Source: an uncultured virus (IMG/VR IMGVR_UViG_3300045996_000972) (taxonomy: Duplodnaviria > Heunggongvirae > Uroviricota > Caudoviricetes). Taken from it: a stretch of DNA of 64,000 nt. The notes under the pieces were generated by a model that saw only the letters and a list, made by a program, of their open reading frames with translations, ran no database searches and was not told the DNA's origin. Position 1 is the first letter of the stretch. Each line of letters begins with the position of its first letter. Shown piece by piece: positions 141 to 62,094 of the stretch. Made by a program: the position numbers and the translations under genes. The stretch is taken from IMG/VR virus record IMGVR_UViG_3300045996_000972. One strand, 5' to 3'.

Positions 141-314
141 ATGAGAACAATTTTACGGCTGATGAAGCCTTACATCACAAAGCGTCTCTTAAAGAAAGGT
201 TTCGACCGCCAATACATTAACGGATTCTTCTGGTCGGTAGGTGTTGACAATTATCTACCATTAGAGACAATGGATATTATAAGCGAATCTCACCCAATAA
301 ATCAAAAATCATGA
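141..314 (+). CDS. small hypothetical protein, 57 aa (not in ORF track)
   Basis: Hand-translated MRTILRLMKPYITKRLLKKGFDRQ...; A-rich leader; ATGA overlap with the 311 ORF. Confidence 0.6.
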   Translation: MRTILRLMKPYITKRLLKKGFDRQYINGFFWSVGVDNYLPLETMDIISESHPINQKS

Positions 315-517
315 ACTACAACAAAATGCCAGAGTACACCCCACCACCGATGCCGGAAGAAAAATTCACCCGTAGTCAACTGGTAGAGTTCGGCAACTAC
401 CTACTGTCAGAAGAAAGGAAATCCTTTTACACCGGGGACAATGTAGAAGAAAGACTGTCGCAGGTCAACCATGCTGATGTAGAGAACTGGTTGAACTTGG
501 CAGTAGAGCAGAACTAA
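311..517 (+). CDS. hypothetical phage protein, 68 aa
   Basis: ORF track; A-rich leader; LVEFGNYLLSEER...VNHADVENW. Confidence 0.7.
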   Translation: MNYNKMPEYTPPPMPEEKFTRSQLVEFGNYLLSEERKSFYTGDNVEERLSQVNHADVENWLNLAVEQN

Positions 518-541
518 AAGTACGCCTACAAACACATCAAC

Positions 542-766
542 ATGGAATGCCTAAATGATAAACACAAGCCGAGAGACAACAAGTTGGGGGTTACGTGGTG
601 CGTGAGATGCGGCAGATTGTTTAATAAGCCTTGCGGGAAAGATTTACTGGAGTCAGATAAGGTAGTTGTTAAGGTGAATAGCGAACAAGGCGATGCAGTG
701 AGTGACACAACGAGGACGAGTAAAGAACCGAACGCTGGCGACCAAAACCCAACGGAAGCCCAATAG
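542..766 (+). CDS. small Cys-containing (CxxC) hypothetical protein
   Basis: ORF track; WCVRCG motif. Confidence 0.55.
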   Translation: MECLNDKHKPRDNKLGVTWCVRCGRLFNKPCGKDLLESDKVVVKVNSEQGDAVSDTTRTSKEPNAGDQNPTEAQ

Positions 767-787
767 TATTACCTAACGCTACAAAAT

Positions 788-931
788 ATGAAAGCATTTG
801 ATTTAATAGCCTACTGGAAAAAAATATATCCGAGGATGAATAGAAACGAAAGCCGGAATAAAGGGTTGCTTATTCGTCGCACTTGCAGAGCAGTTAAAAA
901 CAAGGCACGACTGAAAGCAATGTTTTACTAA
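788..931 (+). CDS. small basic hypothetical protein, 47 aa
   Basis: Hand-translated MKAFDLIAYWKKIYPRMNR...KAMFY*; preceded by the CTAACGCTACAAAA spacer. Confidence 0.55.
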   Translation: MKAFDLIAYWKKIYPRMNRNESRNKGLLIRRTCRAVKNKARLKAMFY

Positions 932-949
932 CGCTACAAAACACACAAC

Positions 950-1048
950 ATGCATCCACCTGACATAAACAGAACCACCACCTGGAGAGTATTTATTGCC
1001 GTTCTTATCGCCTTGGCGATATTGGGCATAGTTCTGATCATCAAATAA
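950..1048 (+). CDS. 32-aa single-pass membrane peptide
   Basis: MHPPDINRTTTWRVFIAVLIALAILGIVLIIK*; one hydrophobic helix. Confidence 0.55.
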   Translation: MHPPDINRTTTWRVFIAVLIALAILGIVLIIK

Positions 1049-1055
1049 CGCCACA

Positions 1056-1625
1056 ATGGAAAATATAATAACACCGGAGAACTGCCGCGAATTACTGATC
1101 AAGATTTCAGACACAAAACGCCCGAGGTCGCCAACAGAAGTTTTCGATACGCACTTGTCATTTGTAGCCAAAGCTGCAGCTTGGAGTGTCGTTTACAATT
1201 TCTGTGTTCAACACGGCATGGAAACAACCGAACTTAACCAATCAGGTATTGAGCGAGTGATTACATTCCTTAATAGCAAGTTAGGCTTACCTGTAGCAGA
1301 TAAAACAAAAGTTGTTTGCTTTTGCGGTTCAACGCGATTTGCAGACCACTTTATGATTAAACGGTGGGAACTAGAAAAGCAAGGGATAATAACTTTTGGA
1401 ATCAACATTTTACCTAATAACTATTTCGCAGAAGGGAATGCGCATGGGGCCGAGCAAGAAGGCGTGAAAGATATTCTTGATGAATTGCATCAGCGAAAAA
1501 TTGATCTATCCGATGAAGTGTTTATTTTGAATGTTGGTGGTTACATCGGAGAATCTACGCGGAAAGAATTGAATTACGCTTTAAAAATAGGGAAGCCTGT
1601 TAAGTATTTGGAGCCAATAAAATAA
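1056..1625 (+). CDS. protein with C-terminal nucleoside 2-deoxyribosyltransferase-like (DUF4406-type) domain
   Basis: VCFCGSTRF...LDELHQRKIDLSDEVFILNVGGYIGESTRKELNYA signature. Confidence 0.7.
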   Translation: MENIITPENCRELLIKISDTKRPRSPTEVFDTHLSFVAKAAAWSVVYNFCVQHGMETTELNQSGIERVITFLNSKLGLPVADKTKVVCFCGSTRFADHFMIKRWELEKQGIITFGINILPNNYFAEGNAHGAEQEGVKDILDELHQRKIDLSDEVFILNVGGYIGESTRKELNYALKIGKPVKYLEPIK

Positions 1626-1690
1626 GCCCTTGTAAAAACAAGGGCCGCAACCAAAACTAACTGCTTATGAGAAAATTGACTACTACCCCA
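1616..1690 (-). ncRNA. candidate small RNA A
   Basis: Minus-strand TATTTTTG box (1703-1696), seed UUUUCUCAUAAGCAGUUAGUUUU, then hairpin 1626-1645 with a U-rich tail only on the minus strand. Confidence 0.4.
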
Positions 1691-1710
1691 ATCTACAAAA
1701 ATATTTTGAT

Positions 1711-2547
1711 ATGGCAATAACAAAAATCGAATGGACCGGAACAGAGCTTCCTGACGGGACCATTATTCCAGGCTACACCTTCAATCCGTGGTGGGGCTGC
1801 ATAAAGGTTTCTCCCGCCTGTAAGTTTTGCTATGCAGAAACACTATCGAAAAGGTGGGGGTTTGATGTGTGGGGTCCGAATACGTCACGTAGGTTCTTCG
1901 ATCGCAAGCATTGGCTGAAACCATATTCGTGGAACGCCAAAGCCAAGCAGTTGGGCGTTCGCTTAAAGGTGTTTTGCGCATCCATGGCGGACGTATTTGA
2001 AGATCATCCTGAATTACCAGAGGAACGTCAAAAATTATGGAAGGTAATAGAGGAAACGCCACACCTTGACTGGCTGCTTCTTACCAAACGTCCCGAGAAC
2101 ATCATGCAGATGATCCCTGTCGTATGGCACACACTCATGCCGCTCAATATCTGGATGGGCACCACCGCTGAAAACCAAGAAGAATACGACACACGATTGC
2201 CGTACCTGGCGCAAGTCCCGGCGCGCGTTCGTTTCCTTTCTTGCGAACCACTTCTTGGACCGATCGACTTATATTTCATTGGAACAGCACCAGCAGATTG
2301 GACTGGCGGCGCTTACCGATTGGTAGGGAACTTGATTCATTGGGTCATTGTAGGAGGCGAAAGCGGACACAAGGCAAGGCCGATGAACCCCAAATGGGCG
2401 AGATCCATTGAAAAGCAGTGCAAGGATTTTGATATAGCCTTTTTCTTCAAGCAATGGGGCAGCCATGATGCGGAAGGGAAAAAAGTAAACAGTAAATACG
2501 ACGCCGGAAAATTATTGGATGGCGTGGAACATATAGCATGGCCATGA
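1711..2547 (+). CDS. phage Gp37/Gp68 family (DUF5131) radical-SAM-like protein
   Basis: TKIEWT...FNPWWGCIKVSPACKFCYAE, SMADVF, LLTKRPEN, FLSCEPLLG, WVIVGGESG, FFFKQWG. Confidence 0.9.
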   Translation: MAITKIEWTGTELPDGTIIPGYTFNPWWGCIKVSPACKFCYAETLSKRWGFDVWGPNTSRRFFDRKHWLKPYSWNAKAKQLGVRLKVFCASMADVFEDHPELPEERQKLWKVIEETPHLDWLLLTKRPENIMQMIPVVWHTLMPLNIWMGTTAENQEEYDTRLPYLAQVPARVRFLSCEPLLGPIDLYFIGTAPADWTGGAYRLVGNLIHWVIVGGESGHKARPMNPKWARSIEKQCKDFDIAFFFKQWGSHDAEGKKVNSKYDAGKLLDGVEHIAWP

Positions 2548-2825
2548 GCTTAACCCGAAACGAACTGCAAACGATAATGAACCACCTGCCACCAGCGATG
2601 CCAGGCGTAGGGTTTGAAATAAGGCCCACCAGGCATTTGCCATACGAGCTTACCTATGAAGCCTGTGATGTTAAGTCCAGACAGCAATATAAAATATATA
2701 CTGGCGTGATCATCCACATGATCCAAGTGACAGCGCGCAGACTTATGGTGTCCGAAGATCTCTATAAAATGTTAAGTGACGTAAAACTATCGAATGGCCA
2801 GAGATCAGTTAAGTTCAGCGGTTAA
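2544..2825 (+). CDS. hypothetical protein
   Basis: ORF track (2538); ATG at 2544 overlaps the upstream stop as ATGA. Confidence 0.55.
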   Translation: MSLTRNELQTIMNHLPPAMPGVGFEIRPTRHLPYELTYEACDVKSRQQYKIYTGVIIHMIQVTARRLMVSEDLYKMLSDVKLSNGQRSVKFSG

Positions 2826-3123
2826 GAAGGTTCTGATCGGGCTATTAATAGCCGAATATGGGATGCGTCAATTACCAAACCGTATGTTCAGCAATAACAC
2901 ACTTAATCACAAGGCAACAAAAGCGATTGCCGCGGTGAGAGATATGCAGTTTTTTTTCCTGAACAATCCGGGCCACGACAACACTATTCGCGAGGCTTAC
3001 CACCGCGAATTTTTCGGGAACGAGAACCTGCTTGTGGCGGAGATCATGGAAACAATACACGGGCTCAATGAAGACGATTTAGCAATAATACTGGAAGGTT
3101 TACAATCAAATATTGAACAATGA
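2794..3123 (+). CDS. hypothetical protein
   Basis: ORF track; overlaps both neighbours in an operon-like series. Confidence 0.6.
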   Translation: MARDQLSSAVKKVLIGLLIAEYGMRQLPNRMFSNNTLNHKATKAIAAVRDMQFFFLNNPGHDNTIREAYHREFFGNENLLVAEIMETIHGLNEDDLAIILEGLQSNIEQ

Positions 3124-3434
3124 ATACCTTTTACAACACGATCAACCTTTGCGGCGAGGACTTGAAAGAGGCGAACGCGCAAGCGATGAAGCAGGAAGAC
3201 TTAATCGCTGCGATATTTACAGCGAACCGAGGACAGAAGATCTCACCATCGCAGATGAAGGAGATCATTTCGCGCAACTACGGGCACGACTGGCCATTGA
3301 CAAGTATACGACGAGGTATGACGAACTTAACACTTGTGTCGAACGGTAGCATTTTGGAAAAGACTGATGAAAAAGTTCCTGGGATATATGGCAAGCCTGA
3401 ACACCTTTGGAAATTACGCTCCCCTGACTGTTAA
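3120..3434 (+). CDS. putative winged-helix-like DNA-binding protein
   Basis: SPSQMKE...WPLTSIRRGMTNLT...GIYGKPEHLW; ATGA overlap. Confidence 0.55.
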   Translation: MNTFYNTINLCGEDLKEANAQAMKQEDLIAAIFTANRGQKISPSQMKEIISRNYGHDWPLTSIRRGMTNLTLVSNGSILEKTDEKVPGIYGKPEHLWKLRSPDC

Positions 3435-3474
3435 AATATAGGACCATTGCCGTAAAAAACATATCTTTGAACTC

Positions 3475-3542
3475 TCCGAAAATTGCGTGTTATCAATTTT
3501 TGGTATCAGTTTAGATGCCTGGCCTTTCGGTCGGGCATTTTT
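3475..3542 (+). ncRNA. candidate small RNA B
   Basis: TATCTTTG box 3462-3469, seed TTTGGTATCAGTTTA 3499-3513, terminator 3515-3542; no ORF in the unit. Confidence 0.45.
3515..3542 (+). terminator. intrinsic terminator
   Basis: ATGCCTGGCC-TTTC-GGTCGGGCAT stem (with G-U pairs) running into a T tract. Confidence 0.75.
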
Positions 3543-3548
3543 GTAGGC

Positions 3549-3556
3549 TATATTTG
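3549..3556 (+). promoter_or_regulatory. Bacteroidota sigma-A -7 element
   Basis: TATATTTG 4 nt before ATG 3561. Confidence 0.5.
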
Positions 3557-3560
3557 TTAA

Positions 3561-4385
3561 ATGCCAACCCCTTTTGAAACCGATAGAGGTGAAGTATCAG
3601 CTATTGTCAAAGCCAAGAACTGTAAGGATGCGGCTTTTGTTGATGCCACGACCACCTATGCGGAGCTGGCCGCCCTAATGTTCGCTTTCACTGAAATTTT
3701 CTCCTGCTTACCAAGCTATCTTGAAGATCTATTAACGGTCATACCCGACGCGGAACTGTTGACGGAGAACATTTATTTCAACAAAACACTCCCCGGACCA
3801 ATAACCAATCCCATATTCATCGTCAAGTCAACGCTTACCAACGTTGAAATACAAGGGAACGGCGATGTAGAGGCATTGCACATTCACCACGGGTCCGTAA
3901 TAGACACCTTGACGATCAAGTCAGGAACCGACCTGCAGTACCTTCTGGTGGCCGGAGGTAGCGTGATCAACAACCTGGTTATCGAGGACGGGGCCACGAT
4001 CGATTATATCGGGGTCAAAACCTGCAACGGTAAATACGCCAGCAGTGTGCCCCAGGGCTGCGATTTCAGCAAGATCAACGCCTTTTATTTTGAAGAGGTG
4101 GGAGAATTGGGAATCGAAGGAAACGACAACCCGTACACATACACCGCGATCGGACCTAATTCGATCACTATCCCCAAAACCGCGAAAGAGTTTCTCATTG
4201 TCAACCTGGGCAATGGCCTGAACGTATATGCGGACATTACCGTAACGGGAATTACCGGCACAGGCGTAATACCGAAGGATATCGCGCAGTATAAGGTGAA
4301 AGAGGACAGCAAGGATCTTATCACCAATGACATTGTTGTAACTCCGGCAACAGGACACCAAGTGTTCGTAAGCTACACAGTATGA
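3561..4385 (+). CDS. putative virion structural protein (beta-rich)
   Basis: ORF track; short beta-repeat-like segments (GSVIDTLTIK/GSVINNLVIE); ATGA-coupled to the tail fibre. Confidence 0.6.
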   Translation: MPTPFETDRGEVSAIVKAKNCKDAAFVDATTTYAELAALMFAFTEIFSCLPSYLEDLLTVIPDAELLTENIYFNKTLPGPITNPIFIVKSTLTNVEIQGNGDVEALHIHHGSVIDTLTIKSGTDLQYLLVAGGSVINNLVIEDGATIDYIGVKTCNGKYASSVPQGCDFSKINAFYFEEVGELGIEGNDNPYTYTAIGPNSITIPKTAKEFLIVNLGNGLNVYADITVTGITGTGVIPKDIAQYKVKEDSKDLITNDIVVTPATGHQVFVSYTV

Positions 4386-7300
4386 TAGAAGCAGTAAGAC
4401 GAGAAGATCATCAGCCAGGGTGCAACCAAGCGGTTGCTGCGCGTTATCTGGAGCTACTGAACTCCGGATGCTCGTTGATGGCCATGCTGTACAACGACGA
4501 TGCTACTACCACACTGGACAGCATCACGGAGGTCGCGCTTCAATACCAAGGCGCAACACGTATTCAATACGACCAGAACAAGGTCGAACTTTATGCCGAT
4601 AGCCACGTTCAAATAAACCCCGCCCTACGCCTGGCAAACGTGCCAACGCTTTCTTCTTCATCCAGTGTTTTAGTCCTTAACGGATATCAGGTGGAGCAGC
4701 GTACAATTGCGTCACTTTCTACCGCGATCGACTGGACACAAGGCTATGCCACCTACGATGCGCGATATGTGCCGCTGACCAGGCAGATCAACGGGCTGGC
4801 TTTATCAGCCAACCACACGTTTGCCACGGGCACCAGCGGAACCGATTTCAATATTTCATCTTCTGGAACGACACATACGTTTAATATTCCGGATGCGTCA
4901 ACGTCTAATAGGGGATTGATCACAACAGGGACACAAGGAATAAATGGGTTTAAAACGTTCCATGGATCACTATTGTTTAGATCGGGATTTGCCGTGAGTG
5001 ATACTTATGATCCAACCATTGCTATCTTGGGAGCTGTTCTTGGAACATCAGATACTACTCCTCAACTTCTTATCGGGGGAGCGTCTTCAATAACCGCCAG
5101 GATATTTGAAAGATCGAATCAAACACTTACAGCCGGCAACATAGGATCTTCTGTAATAGGTCATATTATCGGAACGCAGGTGTTTCAGACTTCAGCAAGC
5201 GGAACACACCCGATATTCACTCAATTAGCGATAAAGCCTCTTTCAATTACAAATAGCGGAGCCACTGTAACCAATTCAGCGTCCTTATATATTGAAGGAG
5301 CTGCGACAGGGGCTACCAACAACTATGCCCTTTGGGTAGATGCTGGCACGACCAGGCTGGACGGATCTGTTATTTTGAATACTCTTACTACAAATGTTAC
5401 ATCAACCGATATACTAGTAAGCAATAGTGGAACGGTTGAAAAGCGAACACTTGCATCCCTTATTAGCGGAGGAGGTATTACTACCGGATCAGGAACCCTT
5501 GATTATCTCGCCAGGTGGACTTCATCATCTACGCTTGGCCTCGGTGCGACAAGGGATAACGGAACCCAAGTAGGTATTAATATAGCACCAAGCGCATCTT
5601 ATGGATTATCCCTTAATGGTAATCTTGCGATACATGGAACAGCTTCTACATACAAGGCTATTGAGATTGCCACCTATGCCGGGACTACACCAGCTCACGT
5701 TATTGGTGATGATGGCGGGGCGTTCTTCGGTAATGGATTAAATATAGCTTCATCAGGAAGTAACTCACAGGTATTCCTTCAGCCTGTATCAGTGGGAAGG
5801 AATGTGAATGTAGGGTCTGCTACTGCTCTTGGCTCTAAGCTGGGTGTGAAAGGTGACAGCACAATGGCCGCAGTATTCACAGCATACAATTCAGCAGATA
5901 TTATAGTGCTTCAAGCCGGCCAATCAGCTTCAGGCATTGGATACGGTGTAGGCATTGGTGGCGCGTTTGACTTCAACTATCCTTTAAAAGTAACAGGACA
6001 AAGCTGGTTCACCGGTAATACAGGTATAGGAACAGCACCAGTGACTAATACAGGGTATACAACCCTTGCTATAAATGGCACTTCTGGGGGTATTCTGGAA
6101 TTAATGACAGGTGGAGTTAGCAAGGCTCAAATGTACACTGATGCAAGTCACGTTTATCTTGCTACCATAAGTAATGCAAATGATATCGTCCTTGGTAACT
6201 CATACCTAAGAGTATACGGTGGCGTTTCTCCAACTTACAGGGTAAGCGTATCAGGAACTTCATATCTGAATGGTAATGTAGGTATTGCAGTTGCTCCCCA
6301 CGCAACCCACAGATTTGCTATAGACGGCAATATATTCTTTGCAGGTAATCCTTCCTCTACAGGTAACAATTTATATAACGCCAGTGGCAATACCATGATC
6401 GGGTGGGATTCTTCCACATTATATGTAGGGTTGAGTTTCGGTTCCGCACAAATTCACATGGGAACAAGCGGTACTGGCAAGTTCAGGTGGAGAAGTACCG
6501 GTAACTTCGAACTTGATGCTGCAAGGTTACTCGTAAACACCAACACTGATGATGGATTTCAAGCAGACATCAACGGTACACTTAGATCATCTGATATAAC
6601 TCTACGATCAGGAGCAACTAGAAATATTATAGTTCAAAATCCATCTTCAACAGGAGCAGGCAATAACCTAAGCATAAGTGCAGCATCAGGTACAACATCA
6701 GGTGCAGGGGGCACACTTACATTAAATGGTGGAGTAGGGGTAGGTGGTTCTGCACACGGTAATATATTCTTAAAGTCAGAGACAGTAGTAATTGGTAGAA
6801 GTTACGCAGGGAACGTCAATAATACTTATCAACTAGATGTTAGCGGCGGACTACCTTCGTTGTTCTGGAGATCATCTAATATATACTACCTCATAAATCA
6901 GGGGTCGTCTTATAGCGAAACTGTACTTACGGCGCAAGGGTACACACTTGGTATTTACGCTAATCCACAAGTAGGTAACCAATCCGGTAGTGCAGGAACA
7001 TACTACGGTCAAAGTGTTGGTATAGTATCAAATACCAGCATTCCTATTGTATTCGGTATCGGCACAAGCGAGAAATTGCGATTAAGCACCGGAACGTATT
7101 CCACAGATATTACAGGTACAGCTAGAGCTACTTCAGACCTGTATGCCAACACAAGAATATCACTTGGTGGATCATCATTTGTTACCTGGGCTAGTGGACT
7201 ATATACGATGCAGGGAGTGAGTGGTATCAACTCTGTAATGTTAGCCAGTAATGCTACTAGTGGTGTCCATATCACTACAAACGCATATCACAATGGTACT

Positions 7301-10300
7301 AACTGGAAATATGTAGCAGCAGCCGCAGCAGCAAATATGTCTACCAGTGAGACTGGATTATTATTCAGGGTAGCACCAGTCGGTACAGCAGGAGCAGATG
7401 TTTCTTGGGTTAATGCGTTAAGTGTGGGATTGACTGGTTATTTCACATACACTTCATCAGCAGCATCAGGATCACACGTTAGTGAGTGGACAAGTACTAA
7501 CACACCTATTAAGATCAAATTTCTACTAGGCTCATCTGCCGCTCAAATTTCTAATTCCGGTGGGGCGGGAGGATTACAAATAAATGACACTGCTACTGGG
7601 TTTTTACAGATAGACGTTGGAAGGATTGTAACTCCGGCAAGCTGGCCGATTATATCAGCATCCGGTAATTTATTATTAAGAGGGAACACATCAGGAACAG
7701 CGGGTAATGGTGTACTTATCCAATCATTCCATAGCGGCGATTGGCAACCTGCCTTTACTATTCTAAATGGTACTAGTACATCTCTCTTCTCTGGTTCAGT
7801 AACAGCAGCTTCATCTGTAGCTAGGGGTGTATATATGAATCAAACTTTGGTTCAGGCTGCTGCTAGTGACTTCTTATCTGGCCTTGAAATAAATACCACA
7901 TTTAATGTAGGTGCAGGAGCATTAGCTCATAAAGCCTATTATCTAAAGGTGGGTGGATCAGGATACGCACCTTCTGCATATACCACTAATAATTATGTAA
8001 CAGGTATTGAAGTAGATCAGGTTTTTACTAATACTCACTATGCTATTGGTATAAGAATTAATAGTACGTACAATAATGTACAGTATGCAACAGCTTTAAG
8101 AATTGATAATAGTGCTTATTGGGCTATATATCAAAGTTCAACATCTGCTATGAACCTTATAGCAGGTAAGACAGCATTTGGATTTAGTGGTGGAGCTTAC
8201 GGGGATCCAACCCATGCTACAGCTACTACCAATGGGGCTATAATAAATATTGCTAATGATGCTACTTATGGGGCGATTAAGATAGGTACAGCAGGGATAA
8301 ATACCCAACACCTCATTTTCAGTCATACGGAATCCGGTTCAACGCATAGTGCTATCTCTAATACGTATGATAATGCTGGTTCTCTCTTCGATATAAGAAT
8401 GAGAGGTAACACAAATACCCACCATGTTCTTAGGTTCGTAGGTGATTCTACTACCTTGTTTAATACAGGTAGAAGCACCCAGGCTGCTATCAATAGGTAT
8501 ACCTTTGCCATGAGTGGTGATGCTGTTAGTTCTACCCAGAATCAAATACACTTTACAGGACTGGTAGGTACACAGGCATCGGGTATCGCCAATATCATAA
8601 ATATAGCCCCTAGTTATAATACTGGTTCAAGTGGTGGAGGACAAACCCACAGGGGTATTTATTATAACCCAAGCTACGCTGTAGCTATGCCTCAAGCAAT
8701 ACCACATTATGCTTTTGAAAGTACAAGTGGTATGCAGAAGTATGGGTATAAAACTGATACATCTACAAGTTCCGTTAGATTAGGTAGTGGTTATGAATTA
8801 TTTGGAACAACACATGCTAGTTTAGGTTATCACTATTATATATCTCCAGAAGGATGGGCAGGTGGATGGGGTGTTAGAATAGGAAATAGTACTAGTTACA
8901 CTACTATATATGATGGTGGGCTAAGTACTGGTGTTTTATCTGCTAGCTCAGCAATATTTATGGGAGGAGTTCTAAAAACATACTCAAGTTCACCACAAAC
9001 AGGATGGGAATTTGCTGATAGTAGTGGTTGGAGTTTTGTGCTAAGAGGTGCTAGTATAAACCACATGACTATAAGTACTACGGGCTATGTGTCATTCCCT
9101 GCTGAGGTGTATTCTGCTACAAGATTAAAGGCTGGTAACTTTGCTACTGGTGGCGGAGTAGGTGCAACAGATAAAATTATTACAGATGGTGTTGTAAGAG
9201 CAGCCGGTGGACTTAATTTAAGAAGCCCTGTTTATGGTGATAATACTTTTTATGGAATACTACAATCATTGGGCGGGGTAGATATTGTATCTGCTGGCGG
9301 TACAGTGGCTTACTTTAATACTGTTGGTGGCGGTACAGGGAATGTGGTTACAATTGGAGGATATGCTCACAACCCTCCTTCTGGTACAGGAACGGTAAAT
9401 AATCTTTTGCTTAGTAATGGGATTACACCAACGGGTGCTAATTCTATTAATTACAACTATATCCATATCGCACCAAGCATTGTTCAGAGCACTTTCGGTA
9501 CTGGTACTTTAACTATGCTGAAGGTTGCGCCTGGTGTGACATCGTTAAATACTTCTACCCTAAATCTGGCCGAGTTCCATGTAACCGCATCAGCGTCTGC
9601 TGCCGGAAGTAGCCGGTTAGCTAATAATAGTCTGTATAAGATCACAAACCAGTATGGTGGTCACGGTGATATTTACTGGAAGTTCCAAATGATTGGGGCT
9701 AACTCAACACCTTCTACAATAGATGGTGGCTATATGAGAGTGGCGTTTAATGACGCTGGTACAGGGGGTTCCGATTTTGAAATTGCTAATAGAGGTGCTA
9801 GTTCTACAGCAGTTAGATTTCTTATTAGTGGTATTAATGTTTTTGTTGGAGGAACTAATGAACAATCTGGATTATACTTCAGAAGAGGCATTACCAACGG
9901 TGGCGATCATTTGCTCAGTGTCGAGCGTCAAGCTAACAACAACTTTGCAGGAGATAATATAGCAATTCAGGGAGGCTCTCCGTATCTCGGAACAACCAAT
10001 GCTAATGGAGGTAATATAAAGCTAATAGGTGGTGTTGCTACTGGATCAGGATCATCCAATGTTGATATTTATGTAACAGGTGGTGGATCATCAGGCACAA
10101 CCGATAATACAACACAGACTCATGTGCTCAGGGCACAGGGTAGCGATAAGACATTGAAGTTCTATGGTGCAGCAGGAGGTTCTTACACTACCACCATGGC
10201 ATTAACAGGTATTGGATTAATATTGGGGCATGATTCAGCGTCCAGAACACTTGAACTACAAACCAGTTCAACCACACGTATCAGTATTGCAGGTGGTGGT

Positions 10301-12259: not shown

Positions 12260-12304
12260 TTCTTTCTTTGGAAGCGTATGAGCAAACGCTAAACAAAGAA
12301 GGAA

Positions 12305-16857: not shown

Positions 16858-17676
16858 TTATACTGTCAGCATTGAAAGTGAAATATCAGCATTTTCTTTT
16901 CTGACACCCATTGCTATTTGCCCTATACGAGCCAAGAAGTACTCCACGCCATCAATTTTCAGCGGATAGCCTTTGTAATCCATGTAGCCGTCAAAGAAAA
17001 CGTGATCACCGCCAGTCATTCCGCTAAACCTCTTGGCTGATGTTTCCGGGTGGATGAACGCCAGCTCCATGCGGTGGAATATCGGCTTATTCAGTTTATT
17101 GGTCAGCTTGGCTTGCTCATATTTCAATTCATTGATCTTACGAATATTGTCCTCACTGGCGATACCTTCAGCCAAAAACTTAACCTGGTTGTCGAGTTCT
17201 TCAATCCGGAGTCTCAATTCACTGTCGTCCTCATATTCACCTTCTCGCGGAATAAACAGTCCCGCTTTGCTTACATGCCAGCGGCCAGTATCCGGCAGAT
17301 CCTTGGTCCAAATGATTTCGCGGCTTGGAATAATCGTGCCATCCTGTTTTTTCACCCCAAGAACATCGTCAAAGGTGCACTCCACAATGCGGTCCTCCGA
17401 AATACAGTCGCCATCCTTCCAAACTTCATCAATGATCCTCCAATCATCATCCTCAACGGTATGGTGAAAAATCAGGGTGTCCCCTACATGGACTTCCGGG
17501 AACCACTGCCGGGCTTTCTCACCGATTTGCAGGACCGGGGCGGCCTGTAAATAGTGTTTCATATCAAGCATGGTGTCGGCCATTATAAGGCCCGGAATCA
17601 CTTCAGATAGAGCCCGTTGTTTCTTTTGAATGTCTTTGACTATACGGACAAGGAAGAATTGAGCATTGACGCGCAT
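16858..17676 (-). CDS. tandem GroES-like co-chaperonin
   Basis: Two GroES-like halves (VLQIGE...EVHVGDTLIF...DDVLGV; GDHVFF...LKIDGVEYFLARIGQIAM) joined by a coiled coil. Confidence 0.6.
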   Translation of the reverse strand: MRVNAQFFLVRIVKDIQKKQRALSEVIPGLIMADTMLDMKHYLQAAPVLQIGEKARQWFPEVHVGDTLIFHHTVEDDDWRIIDEVWKDGDCISEDRIVECTFDDVLGVKKQDGTIIPSREIIWTKDLPDTGRWHVSKAGLFIPREGEYEDDSELRLRIEELDNQVKFLAEGIASEDNIRKINELKYEQAKLTNKLNKPIFHRMELAFIHPETSAKRFSGMTGGDHVFFDGYMDYKGYPLKIDGVEYFLARIGQIAMGVRKENADISLSMLTV

Positions 17677-19224: not shown

Positions 19225-19467
19225 ATGGTAAAAGCATTCTTAAAAAAGCTGTTCTCTGCAGATGGAGAAATCTCATCCAAGCGAGTGGTGGGCTTTTTGG
19301 CATTCATGCTCATTTTTGAAATTGTACAATACTATTTGTTCAAACTCAACAGCATCCCGGAATTTATGTTTTGGGGCATTATCACACTGGTGGGAGCTTG
19401 CTTCGGCCTGAACGCCCTTATTGATATGAAGAAAAAAGAGCCTACTAACCCAAACAATAACGAATGA
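19225..19467 (+). CDS. holin (two TM helices)
   Basis: GEISSKRVVGFLAF... with two TMs; ATGA-coupled to the endolysin. Confidence 0.65.
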   Translation: MVKAFLKKLFSADGEISSKRVVGFLAFMLIFEIVQYYLFKLNSIPEFMFWGIITLVGACFGLNALIDMKKKEPTNPNNNE

Positions 19468-19994
19468 TATTCATTTCAGCCGGCCATCATAATCAGGACC
19501 CAGGAGCATCGGGCAAAGGGACCACCGAAGCAGCGCAGACAAAGATCATGCGTGACAAAATTGTCGCAGAGCTCCAAAAATTAGGGTGCAAGTTTATTAC
19601 AGACAACGACAATGAAACCCTGTCCCAATACCTGAAAAGGATTGAAACCGGATCTGGAAGCGTCGTTCTTGAATTACACTTCGACGCATTCAATAAAATA
19701 GCTACCGGATCTACCGCGCTTATGGCCGATGATGCAACAGCCGAAAGCAAGGCTTTTTCGGCTGAATTGGTGGCCACCACTGCCAAAGTGCTAGGAATAC
19801 CCAACCGAGGAGCGAAAGGGGAAGGAGAGTCGAACAGGGGCCGCCTGGGCTTGATGCGTGAACATGGCACCGTTTGTTTGCTGGAAGTGTGTTTTATCGA
19901 CAACGAAAACGATATGCAGAAGTACTACCTGCACAGGGATGAATTGGCCGTGGAGCTGGCCAAGATCATCAAGAAGTACGAGGACTTGAAATAA
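19464..19994 (+). CDS. endolysin, N-acetylmuramoyl-L-alanine amidase (Amidase_3)
   Basis: ISAGH..DPGA..TE, ELHFDA, LLEVCFIDN..D zinc-amidase motifs. Confidence 0.9.
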   Translation: MIFISAGHHNQDPGASGKGTTEAAQTKIMRDKIVAELQKLGCKFITDNDNETLSQYLKRIETGSGSVVLELHFDAFNKIATGSTALMADDATAESKAFSAELVATTAKVLGIPNRGAKGEGESNRGRLGLMREHGTVCLLEVCFIDNENDMQKYYLHRDELAVELAKIIKKYEDLK

Positions 19995-20054
19995 TCTTTG
20001 TTTGCTCATACGCCTCCCCAGGGAGTGGAAGGGAAACCGACCGCTCCCATTTTT
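19995..20054 (+). ncRNA. candidate 3'UTR-derived small RNA C with terminator
   Basis: Seed TCTTTGTTTGCTCATACGCCTCC (19995-20017) then hairpin GGGAGTGG...CCGCTCCC plus T tract. Confidence 0.4.
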
Positions 20055-20069
20055 AAAACAAAAAGGTAA

Positions 20070-22427
20070 ATGCTAACGGAACTTGAATATTTAGAAACAA
20101 ATCCTAATAAGAAAGATGCCGCATGGGCAGACAAACTTATTACGAATTTCCGTCAGCACTGGCAGCCTCTTGTTTCCGAAAAAACGGCGAAGGAGAACAT
20201 GGAATTACTGCTTGGTAAGACGGATATGGATTTCGTAAAGAATATGTTCAAAAATCCAGAAAAGTCCGGATTGTCATTCGTGGCTCTTTTGGTTATTGAA
20301 AAGTTTCGAAATATCCTGATCGCGGAGAGGGACAAAGCGGGGGTTTCCCTTGGGCTGAATAGCATCGATCCTACGGTACTTGATTCCTTCCGTAAAAGAG
20401 ATCGATCGCTTTTATCTAATCGCAAGACGATCGAGGGACTGCTTTCTACACTAAGCGCCAAAATTGGCGATCCTCCATTCAAAATGAAGACCGAACTGTT
20501 TAATGGTAACATTGACAGTTTTGACGAAATAGGGCTGAACGACGAGGAAGATGAAGATCTCAACTACTTCTTCGCGACACACTGGCGACTGTTGCAGGAA
20601 ATAAAAGGCGAGATCGTCTTAAATCATTTCGTGTCTCACAACAAGGTTGCCGGTAATATTGGACGCTGGTGCAATGATATCCTGGCAAAAAAGGCCATAG
20701 CCTATCAGGTGTTCGTAAATCAGCAAACCGGAGCGATAGAGGGTAAATATCTTGCCCCGGAGCAAGTCAAAGCGATATGGGGCGACAACTTGGATTTTCA
20801 GGACGCACCATGTATCGGCTTCGAGAAAAACGTGACTGTTGCGCAACTTTTGAAATATCTCGGTAACGAGTTTGACCCCGAAATCCATTATAAGGATTTG
20901 ATGTATGCTATTAATAGCCTACACGCGAAAACATACACCGGCCTGGAAGCGGCCAGCGGGGCAGTTCTCTGGAAGGATGCGGGTGTAATAGACGGATCAA
21001 AGAATTTGACATCATTAAGTTGGACTTCCTTCTTGAATTACAAACTCACCTTGGGCTATATCGAGTTCAAAAGCCCCGATGCTACAGCATACAAGAAAGG
21101 GAAAAGCGTTCACGGTAACGCAAAAATGTTTCAGCTAGAGAATACTGAAGCAGAAGTGCGATCAGAATACTACACAAAAGAGACGTTCTTTAACGAGGTC
21201 ACATATAAGGCATACTTTATCCCGACCAGTTCACAGACGCAACGCATCTTCCGGTTTGGAAAATTATTTCATCAGACCATAGAGGGCGGAGAAGATGAAT
21301 ATGCGAACTATTCAATTTGCGCATATAAGGAGGTCGGACCGACCGCGGTTGATGTTATCAAGCCCTACGTTTCGATGATCCAGCAAGCATGGACCAAGTT
21401 CGAGTGGATGGTCCGCAAGGCAAAACCCCGAGGACGCACGTATAATTATGAGGCACTGGTGCAGATAGCCGCCAATATGGTGAAGGAGGGCAATAATGCA
21501 TCAAAGGTCAACGCATTAATGGCCACATTCGAGGACGGCATCAATGATATCTACACCATCCCTACCGTAAGAGGCGAAAGGGTTGGCGGCGGACAAAACC
21601 CGTATTTTGATAAACCCAACGGCTTGGACGCAACGGCTAAAGAATTTTTGGATGTTCTTACATTCTGCCATGAAAAATTAGCCAGTGATCTTGGCGTAAA
21701 CGCTATACGTGAGGCGTATTCTCCGGATCCTAACGATGGGTACAAGTTACAGATGGCCGCCCTGCAGCAGTCGCGCAATGCCACCGAATATATGTCCCAA
21801 ATGATCCTGAAGCTCCTGCATCACGCCGGCACCCAGGTCATGTTAATGACACAGGATATTATCAAATTCAAATCGACACTTCCGTACAAGTGGCTGATCA
21901 GCGCAGTTGGCGACGATACCGTTAAAGCCCTTCAGCAGTGCAAGTACGCACATCACCGAATGGGAATATTCGTTGACACGTTTAACCGGGACTACGAGAG
22001 AGAAGAAGTTAAACAGCTTACCCAAAAGGCTTTCCTTGAAGGGAAACTGGACTACGCGCAGTACATGCTGATCCAGGCAGTTGATAGCCCAAGCAAAGCC
22101 GGGATGATACTGGCGTTTGAGACGCGCAGACAAGAAAAGATCAAGCAGAAAGATGCCGAGAAAGCTCATGAATATGCTCTTGCGCAACAGAAGGCCAAGA
22201 CGCAAGGAGAAATGGCTATTATCGATCAGAAGGGTAAATGGGACGTTGAGGGCAAAAACGTGGAAGGTGAATGGTACTATAAAGCTCACAAAGAAACCGC
22301 CGATGCGTCTATTAAGAAGAAACAAATGGACTTGGAAGGTGCCGAGAATAAAGTTGAGAATAAGAAAGAGGCAGATATTGAAACAGAAACTCACAAGAAG
22401 AACTTAGAGCATCAATCACCGCTTTAA
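20070..22427 (+). CDS. portal protein (crAss-like)
   Basis: 785 aa; position before scaffold/MCP; LGVNAIREAYSPDP...GLQ-like...SRNATEY segment; C-terminal coiled coil. Confidence 0.75.
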   Translation: MLTELEYLETNPNKKDAAWADKLITNFRQHWQPLVSEKTAKENMELLLGKTDMDFVKNMFKNPEKSGLSFVALLVIEKFRNILIAERDKAGVSLGLNSIDPTVLDSFRKRDRSLLSNRKTIEGLLSTLSAKIGDPPFKMKTELFNGNIDSFDEIGLNDEEDEDLNYFFATHWRLLQEIKGEIVLNHFVSHNKVAGNIGRWCNDILAKKAIAYQVFVNQQTGAIEGKYLAPEQVKAIWGDNLDFQDAPCIGFEKNVTVAQLLKYLGNEFDPEIHYKDLMYAINSLHAKTYTGLEAASGAVLWKDAGVIDGSKNLTSLSWTSFLNYKLTLGYIEFKSPDATAYKKGKSVHGNAKMFQLENTEAEVRSEYYTKETFFNEVTYKAYFIPTSSQTQRIFRFGKLFHQTIEGGEDEYANYSICAYKEVGPTAVDVIKPYVSMIQQAWTKFEWMVRKAKPRGRTYNYEALVQIAANMVKEGNNASKVNALMATFEDGINDIYTIPTVRGERVGGGQNPYFDKPNGLDATAKEFLDVLTFCHEKLASDLGVNAIREAYSPDPNDGYKLQMAALQQSRNATEYMSQMILKLLHHAGTQVMLMTQDIIKFKSTLPYKWLISAVGDDTVKALQQCKYAHHRMGIFVDTFNRDYEREEVKQLTQKAFLEGKLDYAQYMLIQAVDSPSKAGMILAFETRRQEKIKQKDAEKAHEYALAQQKAKTQGEMAIIDQKGKWDVEGKNVEGEWYYKAHKETADASIKKKQMDLEGAENKVENKKEADIETETHKKNLEHQSPL

Positions 22428-22703
22428 TTCTTTTAGAGTAGGGAAGATAACGTGTTTTTCCACCAACCTGGCGACGCTTATCCCCTCATTATCTGCCATG
22501 GCTTTTAAGTTTTCTTCAATATCGGGAGGAATATCATAGCCTTTTTTAATCTTTTGGCATTTCCCGTCACACTTGCGCTCAACCTCTTTTTTTGCAAGTT
22601 TGACGATGCCACGGAGAACGAGAGAAGATATGCCGCCTTTGGGCTTGTATTCGTTGTCGAGGGTGTTATAATCGTCCTGACAGTATTCGAGGAAAATTAT
22701 CAT
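22416..22703 (-). CDS. small ribbon-helix-helix-like DNA-binding protein
   Basis: YDIPPDIEENLKAMADNEGISVARLVEKHV; own minus-strand TATGTTTG box at 22736-22729. Confidence 0.55.
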   Translation of the reverse strand: MIIFLEYCQDDYNTLDNEYKPKGGISSLVLRGIVKLAKKEVERKCDGKCQKIKKGYDIPPDIEENLKAMADNEGISVARLVEKHVIFPTLKELKR

Positions 22704-22784: not shown

Positions 22785-23828
22785 ATGAGTACATCACACG
22801 CTGAACAAATGTTGGAACAGTCTGCAAGGGAGAGGCAGCCTGCAACAACACAGCCCGAAACCACGCAGCCTGCTACAACGCAGCCGCAGCCGGAGACTAC
22901 GCAGCCACCCACGACCCAACCACAGACCACGCAGCCCGAAACCACGCAGCCAGTAAACGATGATGCAGATCTCATTGCCAAGCTGAAGGAGAGGGGTATC
23001 AATGTGGATAAATTGGACGATCTCAAAAAACCAATCCACAAGGAGCCTACCGAGGAAGAAAAGAAAGAGGCGGACAAAAAGAAAAAGGAAGAGGCCCTGA
23101 AGTACGGACTGGATCAAAAGCTCTATTCGAAAGAAGACTATGATTCCTATGTGCTGGATGCAGCAAAGCCGGCCACAGACATTGCGTTTCAACTTTTCAA
23201 GGATAATTTTTTAGCCGAAATCAAAGGCACAAGCGAGGAAGGTTCTTTCACTGACGAGGATATCAAGGAAGAATTTAATCAGGCTTACAACCTCACCGCC
23301 AACGAAGATTCCGCTAAAAGGAAATTGGGAGAAAAAGCGATTCAGAAGGTGGCCGACAGCTACCTAAAGGATAAGTATGGCAAGATCCTATCTGTTGACG
23401 ACAAGTACACCTCTTTTCAGACAGAACTGGTTAAGGCTGGTCAATACAAGGAAGTAGTTGACAAAGCCTTTGGTTCATTGCCTGAAAAGATCACGTACAA
23501 AGTTGACGGCATTGATGTGGATTTCAAGCTAACGCCGGAAATCGTGGACCAGGTGAAAGCAGTGTATTACGACCCGAAAGCCTACAGGGCATTTGGAAAG
23601 GAAGCCACTGCCGAAAACCTTGTTCAAGCTATCCAAAAAACGATTAGCACAACCGCTTTAGAGCAGCTCATTACAGAAGTTGCCCAAGGCTATCACGCAA
23701 CACAGTTGGCAAACCTCAAATTAGGAAGACAAGGTATTCTTCCTGAAAGAGACAACGGAACTGCAGGTAGCGGGAGTGGTGGTACTAAACATGCTGATGC
23801 CATGCTGGATAACACGAAAGGAAAGTAA
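22785..23828 (+). CDS. capsid scaffolding-like protein with N-terminal TTQP repeats
   Basis: Charged, helical; lies between portal and MCP. Confidence 0.65.
   Translation: MSTSHAEQMLEQSARERQPATTQPETTQPATTQPQPETTQPPTTQPQTTQPETTQPVNDDADLIAKLKERGINVDKLDDLKKPIHKEPTEEEKKEADKKKKEEALKYGLDQKLYSKEDYDSYVLDAAKPATDIAFQLFKDNFLAEIKGTSEEGSFTDEDIKEEFNQAYNLTANEDSAKRKLGEKAIQKVADSYLKDKYGKILSVDDKYTSFQTELVKAGQYKEVVDKAFGSLPEKITYKVDGIDVDFKLTPEIVDQVKAVYYDPKAYRAFGKEATAENLVQAIQKTISTTALEQLITEVAQGYHATQLANLKLGRQGILPERDNGTAGSGSGGTKHADAMLDNTKGK
22836..22952 (+). repeat. degenerate 15-nt coding tandem repeat (QPxTT)
   Basis: QPATTQPETTQPATTQPQPETTQPPTTQPQTTQPETTQP. Confidence 0.9.
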
Positions 23829-25397: not shown

Positions 25398-26312
25398 ATG
25401 TCCAAAGAGCAAACAAAGACAAGCAGCGTGAAAGAGCCAAAAGTTCGTGTTTTCGAGCTGGTGGATCAGCAAAATTCATCCTATAAACTGGAAGGTACAG
25501 AAGACGTGTACCTAACATCACCCCTACACCGGGTAATTCCAAGCCAGTCCATTTACGTGGACGAAGCTGGCAAACATCACAGGATCCGTTTCATCAAAGG
25601 TTGCCAAACAATCTTTGTTGATGAACAAACGAAAACCGGATGGGAGCCAAGCAAAACAGGTGCCGATGCGATTGTATTTACTACCGGGAAACTGGTGGCG
25701 ACAGAAGAAGGAGATTTCATTCAAATGTTCGAGTTCTTAGACAAGACCACCCTGAACGAATCACCTTCCAGCGGTCAACGCAAATCCGGTTCAACTATCA
25801 TCTTCCGGGAGATCATTAAAGAAGTCGAGGTCAAAAAAGAGCTTGATAACTTCTTCTCCCAAAAGGCGGTTTACGATGCGCTTGGAACCATTGCAATACC
25901 TGACGGAAAAGGCGGAATACAGTACAAGAAGGAGAAAATCGACAGCCTTTGTACGTTATTCGGTCTTGCTGGATTCGAGGCAGATGCTTATGCTGAAAAG
26001 TTGCAAGCGCTGATCGGGTTTGGTCTTGCCAGGCCGGAATCGTTCATCCATTCAATAGCAAATACACTGGCTGAAAAGCGTGTGCTTGTTCTTGGTGGAC
26101 TGGAAAATGGTGTTTTAGGATGGGATAAGCAAAGCCTGATGTTCATGGATGGCGGGAAGGTTCTGATTACAGCGGAAAGCAAGGACAAGGACCAGAAAAT
26201 TCAGGAAGCGGTTGAGTACCTCCTGTCCGCAGAAGGATTCACCGATCTGCAACAACTGGAAATTGCGGTGAAACACGCGAACGAGAAGAAGCTGCTTGCT
26301 TCTACAACGTAA
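25398..26312 (+). CDS. head-module hypothetical protein
   Basis: ORF after MCP; RIRFIKGCQTIFVDEQ...IVFTTGKL resembles the post-MCP gene of crAss-like Bacteroidota phages. Confidence 0.6.
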   Translation: MSKEQTKTSSVKEPKVRVFELVDQQNSSYKLEGTEDVYLTSPLHRVIPSQSIYVDEAGKHHRIRFIKGCQTIFVDEQTKTGWEPSKTGADAIVFTTGKLVATEEGDFIQMFEFLDKTTLNESPSSGQRKSGSTIIFREIIKEVEVKKELDNFFSQKAVYDALGTIAIPDGKGGIQYKKEKIDSLCTLFGLAGFEADAYAEKLQALIGFGLARPESFIHSIANTLAEKRVLVLGGLENGVLGWDKQSLMFMDGGKVLITAESKDKDQKIQEAVEYLLSAEGFTDLQQLEIAVKHANEKKLLASTT

Positions 26313-26356
26313 GAGCAAACGACAAACCAATTTATATCATTTCTTAATTCATAAAA

Positions 26357-30261: not shown

Positions 30262-30285
30262 ATTTCGGGGGAGAGCAAACAAAGT

Positions 30286-31268: not shown

Positions 31269-32360
31269 ATGTATATTCTGATTGAAAAGGTTCAGTTTTC
31301 CGTACAGTCAACAATAAATCAATTTGTTGACGTTTACATTCGAGAGAAAACCTTGCCGGACGTTCCGGCGAACAGGATATTTGTCGGCAATTATGAATTT
31401 TTACCGGATGGAACACCGGTTTCTCCTATTTATATTGACGGATATGCTGCAGGTGATTATGTGGTAATTGGATTGAACAAGTGCAGCTTGTCATTTTCAA
31501 AGCCCGTCACGGTTCTTCCAGCTCCAACGACTACGCAGATCCCGCAGCAAACCACTACCACAATCCCGGTCACGACCACGCAGCCTGCCACGACCCAGGC
31601 CACCACAACGTCACCCGCGACAACGTCAACCACCACCACTACGAACCCTTGCGCTGGAGGACCGTCTTGCCCCGTGATCTACCAACTGGTCACTCCGGCA
31701 CCAGGCGTAACGCCAGTGGGAGCTGGTGGCACCGTCCATGTGCATTTCTTACCGCAGCCTTGCGCGGAACAGTATAAGATTTACGTTCACAAGTTGAGCA
31801 ACGGCGCGCTTCACTCTACCGTACAGGGAACACCTGGGCAATTCTTTTGGGATGCTGGAACGGGCACTTATTACTATCCATTCAACAACATGGATCCGGG
31901 GGAAACATACAAGGTGAAGGTTACAGCATTCATGGGTGGCGTAGAAACAACATCGTGCCCTGAAAGCTATGTTGTCGTACAATCATCCACCACCACCACC
32001 ACGACCACCACAACCACCACCACGACGACAACTACCACTACGGTACCGGACGGCGGGCGGATGCATATACTGAACAATCATGACGGCCAGATCAATTCTG
32101 TGACGCCAGGGTTTTATATCGGTGATACGGGCACATTCCCTATACTGAACGGAGAAGAAGTTCAAACTGTTCACGGAGGATTTACCGGAACAGTAAGTGT
32201 GAATATTTCTGGATCGACAGCAGGAAAGATCACCATGAAGAAAAACGGCGTTCAGATTGGATGCCAGAACGTGACAGGCGGCGGAACCTATTCATTTACC
32301 GGAGTAACATTCTCGTCAACCGATTACATCGAAATCGAAATGTTGACAGGTAATTGCTAA
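31269..32360 (+). CDS. second mucin-like virion protein with poly-Thr linkers and FN3/Ig-like domains
   Basis: Thr tracts about 31525-31645 and 31983-32045; NNMDPGETYKVKVTAF FN3-like motif. Confidence 0.7.
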   Translation: MYILIEKVQFSVQSTINQFVDVYIREKTLPDVPANRIFVGNYEFLPDGTPVSPIYIDGYAAGDYVVIGLNKCSLSFSKPVTVLPAPTTTQIPQQTTTTIPVTTTQPATTQATTTSPATTSTTTTTNPCAGGPSCPVIYQLVTPAPGVTPVGAGGTVHVHFLPQPCAEQYKIYVHKLSNGALHSTVQGTPGQFFWDAGTGTYYYPFNNMDPGETYKVKVTAFMGGVETTSCPESYVVVQSSTTTTTTTTTTTTTTTTTTVPDGGRMHILNNHDGQINSVTPGFYIGDTGTFPILNGEEVQTVHGGFTGTVSVNISGSTAGKITMKKNGVQIGCQNVTGGGTYSFTGVTFSSTDYIEIEMLTGNC

Positions 32361-60273: not shown

Positions 60274-60629
60274 TATACCCAACAAAAATTGAAGGAATCG
60301 TAGCAGCCAATGATAGCTGCCAAGAGATAATTAGTGTGGACCACTGCTTTATTGAGCTTCACCAAGACCATATCAAGTACAAGCACAAATTTCTCGTATC
60401 GGAAAAAAATCCTCAAACAGAACTATTCGAGGAAAAAAAGTGCATTACGGAGGTGGTTTTCAAACGAGCAATATTAGCTGGATACGAAGAATACAGGAAT
60501 GTAGAGGGACGATGCTGGTCCATAATTGTCATTACCATTGGCGGGAGCCAGTTCACCATTTCTTTCAAGAAGAAAGAGGAGGCTAATGTGCTCAAAGAAA
60601 AAATGCACAACTACATATTTGAATTGTAA
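60270..60629 (+). CDS. hypothetical protein
   Basis: ORF track; ATGA overlap with terL. Confidence 0.6.
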   Translation: MIYPTKIEGIVAANDSCQEIISVDHCFIELHQDHIKYKHKFLVSEKNPQTELFEEKKCITEVVFKRAILAGYEEYRNVEGRCWSIIVITIGGSQFTISFKKKEEANVLKEKMHNYIFEL

Positions 60630-60679
60630 AAAAATCATATATTGTTGTCCTATTAACTATTAACCAAAAAATGTCCACT

Positions 60680-61042: not shown

Positions 61043-61047
61043 GGTAG

Positions 61048-61075
61048 AAAAGCCTCTCGAATTGAGAGGCTTTTT
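61048..61075. terminator. bidirectional intrinsic terminator between convergent units
   Basis: AAAAGCCTCTC-GAATT-GAGAGGCTTTTT. Confidence 0.85.
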
Positions 61076-61082
61076 GTTTGGG

Positions 61083-61490: not shown

Positions 61491-61519
61491 TGTATCAGTT
61501 TTGTTCGCTGTTGCGAAGA

Positions 61520-62076: not shown

Positions 62077-62094
62077 TATTCAGTTTTGTTTTGT

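Follow-up and report, generated by a model that had tools for sequence, protein, structure and literature searches.

A candidate anti-leader RNA in a short intergenic gap of a novel soil phage

In a phage sequence from soil, a short gap between two rightward genes contains 15 nt that recur exactly at the start of a leftward gene, so that a transcript of the gap could be antisense to that of the gene. What is this gap for? We have addressed the question in the window, i.e., the whole 64-kb stretch of DNA that was analysed, which is a piece of a very novel phage with soil metagenomes as its source. A first-pass annotation had proposed that the gap produces a small RNA (sRNA), which silences a set of accessory or early genes through a common seed in their initiation regions. 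Our preferred answer, to which we give somewhat less than an even chance, is that the gap 3435-3560 encodes a ~69-nt trans-acting RNA, predicted from sequence and structure modelling, which would occlude the initiation regions of three leftward genes lacking Shine-Dalgarno (SD) motifs.

The gap and its genomic setting

Genes were called as ATG-first, longest non-overlapping ORFs, which gives 52-54 genes. Those in 141-3434 are small and on the + strand. The block 3561-61042 is also on the + strand, except for the minus-strand genes 16858-17676 and 22416-22703, and it encodes very large proteins (2377, 1513, and 5204 aa) together with the large terminase (phrog_6681). From 61083 to the end of the window follow small orphan genes on the minus strand, in a leftward operon that runs on past 64000. 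The gap itself, 126 nt long, separates the stop of gene 3120-3434 (104 aa, +; PHROG match phrog_9069, E = 2.5e-23, over 100 of 104 residues) from the ATG at 3561, and all the genes adjoining it are on the + strand.

Some other features of this layout are recorded here in their own right. At 61043-61082, where the + and minus blocks converge, there is a bidirectional intrinsic terminator, AAAAGCCTCTC...GAGAGGCTTTTT. The 5204-aa protein comes from a single ORF (38508-54122) with Eco57I-type methylase, ResIII, SNF2, and helicase-C domains in the C-terminal half, and looks like a giant polyvalent methylase-helicase protein. Three + strand genes have Thr/Pro-rich tandem coding repeats (ACGACCACC... 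units) in common, at 22827-22951, 28321-29447, and 31557-32058. Finally, 3186-3207 in the + gene 3120-3434 and 61899-61920 in the minus gene 61834-62076 are 86% complementary over 22 nt, and both encode the peptide MKQE in sense; this likeness could be weak paralogy or chance.

The initiation regions of the window are A-rich, G-poor, and without SD motif; mRNAs of Bacteroidota lack SD sites. Read from the sequence, the signals of the window are of Bacteroidota type. The promoter box TAHHTTTG is much rarer than expected (11 copies vs 28.43 +/- 5.38; all the 100 shuffles have at least 11), and 4 of the 11 copies fall in the intergenic 3.3% of the window, 2 of these 4 being in the gap 3435-3560. 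Such depletion together with concentration in gaps would fit selection against stray promoters of Bacteroidota type, and also a Bacteroidota host. As the phage avoids the -7 box elsewhere, the two boxes in the gap are unlikely to be accidental. The features of the gap are as follows.

3462-3469, + strand: -7 box TATCTTTG, fitting TAHHTTTG; from sequence
3474-3542, + strand: predicted small RNA of ~69 nt, from the fold; no credible ORF
3476-3485/3494-3503, + strand: 5' hairpin with a 10-bp stem, from the fold
3499-3513, + strand: 15-nt anti-leader TTTGGTATCAGTTTA, exactly identical with 63878-63892
3504-3512, + strand: open linker UAUCAGUUU, 9 nt, from the fold; the only open stretch, between the 5' hairpin and the terminator
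3513-3542, + strand: predicted intrinsic terminator; stem 3513-3524/3529-3540 (12 bp, GC-rich), loop UUUC, U-run 3538-3542
3549-3556, + strand: second -7 box TATATTTG, downstream of the terminator; from sequence and the spacing rule

The upstream box had been noticed in the first pass, and we confirm it as one of Bacteroidota type. In the available part of a study of Flavobacterium johnsoniae, position -5 is taken by the G of the box, and the transcription start site (TSS) follows it by 4-5 nt (PMC6847099). Applying this box-to-TSS spacing predicts a TSS at 3474 or 3475, where the first-pass annotation had expected it. Two observations count against the sRNA: the predicted +1 is a pyrimidine (C3474/T3475), and a TTG/TTTG element at -33 spacing upstream of the predicted TSS is absent from the sequence. 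The second box ends 4 nt before the ATG at 3561, which puts the predicted TSS on the A of that ATG; thus a leaderless mRNA is predicted for the 274-aa gene at 3561, the first of the large-gene block. On the minus strand of the gap no promoter box was found. A promoter for a virion RNA polymerase was considered and rejected, since a preprint on phi14:2 (crAss-like) reports no common early-start motif and nothing marks this phage as crAss-like.

The stretch behind the first box was said to be free of ORFs, and this holds: no + strand ORF of at least 30 aa exists in 3435-3560. The only + frame has 20 codons from the ATG at 3515 and overlaps the terminator. A micro-ORF from this ATG was rejected on account of its 20 codons and its position inside the terminator.

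The predicted RNA folds into two hairpins with -26.9 kcal/mol (z = -4.66), and none of 200 shuffles folds as well. The 5' hairpin pairs the first 5 nt (UUUGG) of the 15-mer, so 5 of the 15 seed bases are masked, which counts against the sRNA. All three targets described below share one core, and it is exactly this core that lies in the open linker. The terminator seen in the first pass stands up in silico, with a strong stem and a U-run both in the fold and in a dedicated scan, where it is one of 6 strong + strand sites in the window, 4 of which are intergenic. A consensus terminator scan did not list it, probably because the extended stem uses up part of the U-run. In Rfam, the window has no match at the gathering score; the best sub-threshold one is MicC, with 22.8 bits vs 90.

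The same anatomy would also suit an attenuator of the large-gene operon, of the lambda PR'-tR' type, in which a promoter-hairpin-terminator unit gives a short RNA until a phage antiterminator allows read-through to 3561, and the complementarity to leaders is secondary or functionless. We consider this quite improbable. The unit does lie directly upstream of the first large gene, and lambdoid late leaders are built with a terminator immediately behind a constitutive promoter, as far as the accessible text of PMC7547250 describes them. On the other hand, the well-formed second -7 box downstream of the terminator predicts a start on ATG 3561, so that read-through would not be needed, and no antiterminator family was found among the proteins scanned, most of which are orphans. 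The attenuator and the sRNA are actually compatible, since StxS is both a late-leader by-product and an sRNA.

The leader tag and its predicted pairing

The identity of 15 nt between 3499-3513 and 63878-63892, on which the first-pass proposal was built, is confirmed, and its antisense meaning is borne out as well: the minus-strand ATG of gene 63456-63878 has its A at 63878, and a + strand RNA would pair from -14 to +1. The related seeds reported near two other minus-strand starts are also present, at 61809-61823 (2 mismatches; ATG 61807) and 61491-61502 (ATG 61490). The sites are listed below, with the ddG of co-folding for the three targets.

63878-63892, minus strand: target 1, initiation region of gene 63456-63878; 15/15 complementary; ddG -15.7
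61809-61823, minus strand: target 2, leader of gene 61520-61807; 11-nt contiguous match that ends 5 nt before the ATG; ddG -12.9
61491-61502, minus strand: target 3, leader of gene 61083-61490; 10-nt match that ends 1 nt before the ATG; ddG -10.5
62077-62091, minus strand: weak tag relative AAAACTGAATA before ATG 62076 of gene 61834-62076; 7 nt match the seed
8751-8760, + strand: fifth exact copy of the 10-nt core AAACTGATAC; sense, inside the 2377-aa ORF

The three target proteins are all orphans, and no function was obtained for them from PHROGs, Pfam, NCBIfam, PADLOC, or the protein atlas; the label "accessory or early" for their genes is a guess from size and position.

The core AAACTGATAC has 5 copies in the window vs 0.09 expected, and none of 100 shuffles reaches 5. 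Four of the five copies are on the minus strand. Three of these end 1, 3, and 5 nt before the ATGs 61490, 63878, and 61807, respectively, and the fourth is the gap copy at 3499-3513, in antisense orientation. Placement of the motif relative to start codons had been suggested as a check, and within the window 3 of the 5 exact copies are found at minus-strand ATGs. The copy at 8751-8760 could be an internal target or pairing site, or chance. Around it, 8750-8768 (AAAACTGATACATCTACAA) is similar to the leader and start at 61490 (AAAACTGATACAATGACAA), 12 nt being exact.

Parts of the tag differ in specificity. AACTGA appears in 5 of 54 upstream regions vs 0.19 expected. The TGATAC part is private to the AAACTGATAC family, and the AAAC part is generic in the initiation regions of this phage (22/54), which counts against the sRNA reading. 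Before ATG 62076 and before the + gene at 32370 there are weaker relatives (AAAACTGAAT).

How much of this could be chance? The exact 15-mer repeat alone is unremarkable, as there are ~10 distinct chance-like exact repeats of 15-17 nt in the coding DNA of the window. Loose searches give no significant excess either, with 7 matches vs 4.07 expected for the pattern at <= 1 mismatch, and 3 vs 2.36 for the 15-mer at <= 3 mismatches. For a 10-mer match to the family anywhere in the ~2.1 kb of gaps, by arithmetic from base frequencies, the expectation is ~0.005.

For the pairing energies, full-length RNA duplexes against initiation regions turned out as meaningless long bulges, and seed-only duplexes and co-folding, which counts the cost of opening structure, were used instead. 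Co-folding the whole ~70-nt RNA with 54 initiation regions places the three tagged genes at ranks 1, 3, and 4 (median -3.4, sd 3.1). Rank 2 of 54 goes to an untagged site upstream of 11858 (-13.7), and this counts against the sRNA reading. In seed-only duplexes the tagged genes come out on top with -20.2, -17.7, and -13.6 kcal/mol (median -7.55 for 52 genes), and the weak relative at 62076 has a seed duplex of -11.2 and a co-fold of -6.45. The duplexes are AU-rich, a further point against. The target leaders are essentially unstructured (MFE -0.9, -2.2, and -5.2 kcal/mol), with the tag open in the centroid structures. Among 1879 composition-matched shuffles of the 20-nt seed, the best duplex was matched by 1, the second by 0, the third by 15, and the sum of three by 0. 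Among 4102 random 20-mers of the window, which are GC-richer, 177 match the best duplex and 291 the sum of three, so the seed stands at the 4-7% quantile; by this measure it is unexceptional, which counts against the sRNA. The complementarity to three initiation regions is beyond chance.

The gap copy might instead act like the other copies, on the minus strand, as the start of a tiny ORF or of an antisense transcript into gene 3120-3434. A TTG-started 21-codon frame is possible after the tag, and further on there is a 65-aa ATG ORF at 3265-3462. We hold this reading to be highly improbable: no ATG follows the tag, the 65-aa ORF overlaps the + gene with the phrog_9069 match, the gap is without a minus-strand promoter box, and its neighbours are all on the + strand.

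We have also searched for relatives and for strain variation. By blastn against a phage collection, neither 2500-6500 nor 60500-64000 has a match. In IMG/VR, the 274-aa gene gives 0 loci, and JGI metagenomes hold no relative of its protein. The 104-aa gene gives 12 IMG/VR loci at 39-59% identity, none of them with a similar junction. Ten loci were obtained with the DUF5131 gene and 8 with the 186-aa leftward gene; in both sets no other gene is in common, and in the latter no tag precedes the starts. The terminase has 47 loci at 22-28% identity, too distant for comparison. With the 15-mer itself, at least 119 IMG/VR loci are hit, unrelated to the window among the matches listed, and BLAST of the window against 131 IMG/VR loci has matches of at most 34 nt among those listed. 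A 21-mer across seed and terminator has 0 matches in IMG/VR, and the 20-mer at the 63878 start finds 10 loci in JGI metagenomes, all unrelated. In two soil DNA runs, the contigs agree with the window at every position that they cover, with no variation; a record from one run covers 3379-3529 with 0 differences, and the other run is without cover over 3376-3509.

A second anti-leader unit and the rival readings

All 29 sense-strand gaps (1857 nt) were scanned for contiguous complementarity. The longest runs are two of 14 nt, i.e., the 3499-3513 case and a pair between 12260-12304 and 19995-20069. In 200 shuffles of the scan, the best run reached 14 twice and the second-best was never longer than 11.

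19996-20050, + strand: second anti-leader unit; open stretch 19996-20017 in the 3' UTR of gene 19464-19994, directly 5' of a terminator

This terminator is strong (20021-20048 plus U-run). The open stretch is 17/18 complementary to the leader of the 1513-aa gene, with 14 contiguous pairs at 12274-12287, and 12/12 complementary to GAGCAAACAAAG at two other starts. GAGCAAAC has 8 copies vs 2.67 expected, four of them at leaders or starts and one antisense; the related sites are 12260-12304, 25407-25418, 26313-26320, and 30268-30280. As DNA, one of the two antisense pairs forms a direct repeat, whereas the second is inverted. Common to both cases is the complementarity of the transcripts expected from the gene orientations, and for this reason an RNA-RNA reading is favoured.

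The leader of the 1513-aa gene at 12260-12304 has a fold of its own (-18.6 kcal/mol, z = -4.15), in which UUCUUUCUUUG pairs with CAAAGAAGGAA immediately before the AUG. In this model it looks like a translational lock, whose inner hairpin would be the site matched by 20000-20017.

Considering the two units together, the phage may run a small network of anti-leader RNAs, where 3499-3513 would address AAACTGATAC on three leftward genes and 19996-20017 would address GAGCAAAC on four rightward leaders or starts, such that the transcript ends of one block set the translation of others. We regard this wider proposal as doubtful, though possible.

Other shared leaders exist in the window. A 19-nt tag CCAATAAATCAAAAATCAT is duplicated at 99-117 / 294-312, and a 14-nt tag CTAACGCTACAAAA at 773-786 / 928-941, in each case before small + strand ORFs. 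No antisense copy of either tag is present in the window. As the tags at 99/294 and 773/928 do without one, shared leaders need no RNA partner, and this counts against the sRNA.

These duplicated tags, found at small-gene junctions, suggest that cassettes travel with their leaders. The gap may accordingly be just the terminator of the small-gene operon plus the promoter of the large-gene operon, with the 15-mer as a relic leader from a lost or inverted cassette, or as a recombination junction, in either case having no function in trans. The terminator is exactly where the operon is expected to end, and both the ~10 chance-like exact repeats and the predicted pairing of part of the seed with 3466-3473 in a read-through RNA suit this account. 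Nevertheless it appears unlikely to us. The identity ends abruptly on both sides with no leftover similarity in the flanks, unlike a recent rearrangement; the low expectation for a 10-mer in the gaps and the shuffle tests of gaps and seed are against it, and so is the second independent case at 19996-20050 in the same genome. If the RNA is not real, the locus will serve as a warning, because short leader tags are often duplicated in this phage and a lone 15-nt identity means little.

Another possibility is that the tag is the binding site of a phage or host protein rather than of an RNA. Such a protein might bind the leftward mRNAs and either repress their translation or cleave them, in the style of T4 RegA/RegB. 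In the other version it is a DNA-binding regulator, for which the 3499-3513 site would be centred ~53 bp upstream of the predicted start at 3561, e.g., to switch on the second promoter, with the leftward operon blocked through the other copies. The tag is asymmetric, and the spacers that it occupies are so short (16, 26, and 29 nt) that an intergenic signal of any kind has to be close to an ATG; the reverse copy has a promoter box on either side and lies where small genes give way to large ones. Besides, the Cluster K SAS paper, in its available part, leaves open whether the partner is RNA or protein (PMC3203893). Yet an RNA-binding protein could not use the reverse copy, since no minus-strand gene or promoter box is nearby; the tag at 3499 is neither palindromic nor iterated. 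No DNA- or RNA-binding family was found in the small proteins scanned, nearly all of which are orphans, and a protein leaves unexplained both the exact fit of the copy in the open linker and the second unit at 19996-20050. Altogether we judge a protein partner improbable.

For the trans-acting RNA that we prefer, the following mechanism is conceivable. We infer transcription that would start at ~3474 from a promoter of host type (Bacteroidota sigma-A; -7 box 3462-3469) and end at ~3542 at the intrinsic terminator. In the folded RNA, the open linker UAUCAGUUU of 9 nt would separate the 5' hairpin from that of the terminator. The linker, together with the bases beside it, is complementary to (U)AAACUGAUAC(C), the tag that precedes the AUGs 63878, 61807, and 61490 by 1-5 nt. 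In vivo, pairing would be nucleated by the open linker, and the duplex may then grow to 10-15 bp over the SD-less, A-rich region where ribosomes load, reaching the first AUG base at 63878. Such a duplex should block 30S binding, and we infer a repressive outcome, i.e., less translation of the three tagged genes. The same sequence would also be carried in the 3' UTR of the rightward operon ending at 3434, with part of the seed predicted to be masked. In this longer read-through RNA, 3466-3473 is predicted to sequester the seed's 3' half by pairing, so the short RNA would be the active form.

The silencing sRNA of the first-pass annotation has thus stood only in part. Its anatomy holds in silico, its complementarity exceeds chance, its targets take ranks 1, 3, and 4 of 54, and an analogous second unit has been found. 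To its disadvantage, its targets in the 64-kb window are few (three good sites plus two weak), the searches described above found no relatives, and the protein-operator and relic rivals keep some probability.

Comparison with known systems

We know of few classical cases in which phage RNAs control the phage's own genes post-transcriptionally, and of none from Bacteroidota phages. If the present RNA is true, a private tag in an A-rich initiation region can work as the shared address for one small RNA. This would provide a testable function for start-associated sequences and for odd single reverse copies of them, as well as a repressor with its tag, compact and portable, by which genes could be controlled in Bacteroidota.

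In the c4 antisense RNA of P1/P7, of ~77 nt, exposed stretches bind in trans to the ribosome-binding region of a phage gene, whose translation is thereby blocked. The c4 RNA is processed from the target's own operon transcript, has two loops, and controls a single downstream operon, icd-ant, in lysogenic immunity. Our candidate is similar to c4 as a phage RNA that would pair in trans with the initiation region of a phage gene. It differs in having its own predicted promoter and terminator, a single linker seed, and three opposite-strand targets ~58 kb away in the window. In T4, the repressor RegA and the endonuclease RegB shut off many early mRNAs via a short signal in the initiation region. 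The likeness is that several mRNAs would share such a signal for one phage factor, though RegA and RegB are proteins and the candidate factor here is an RNA.

StxS / lambda 6S, in the available part of its description, is the short PR'-tR' transcript of lambdoid phages, made from a promoter and then a terminator upstream of the late operon, and it is a base-pairing regulator (Sy et al. 2020, PMC7547250). Here too, a predicted promoter-terminator unit lies just upstream of the large-gene block and may produce a base-pairing RNA. StxS is said to act on host mRNAs with Hfq and to depend on the Q antitermination logic; to our knowledge, Bacteroidota lack Hfq. Our candidate departs from StxS in that its predicted targets belong to the phage itself, no gene resembling Q was recognised, and the terminator is followed by another promoter box.

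The closest published parallel, as far as the available text goes, is the SAS of Cluster K mycobacteriophages. These sequences (SAS/ESAS) are asymmetric and 13 nt long, and they precede the starts of non-structural genes by 3-7 bp (Pope et al. 2011, PMC3203893). In the same text, SAS contains the Shine-Dalgarno core, has ~10-20 copies per genome, and is conserved across the cluster; four of the phages have a single reverse copy away from gene starts, with the kind of partner, RNA or protein, left open (PMC3203893). Like SAS, AAACTGATAC is asymmetric, stands 1, 3, and 5 nt before the ATGs of three small orphan genes, and has a single opposite-orientation copy not at a gene start (3499-3513). 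Unlike SAS, our tag is without SD, as expected for a Bacteroidota-type host, and has 3 to 5 copies in 64 kb, with no relatives found. In addition, the accessible part of that paper does not describe the reverse SAS copy within a promoter-hairpin-terminator unit (PMC3203893), as is the case for 3499-3513. If the network proposed above were true, it would represent a general principle of phages, namely a start tag plus one antisense copy, in a form of Bacteroidota type that does without SD, and this principle would explain the reverse SAS copies of Cluster K.
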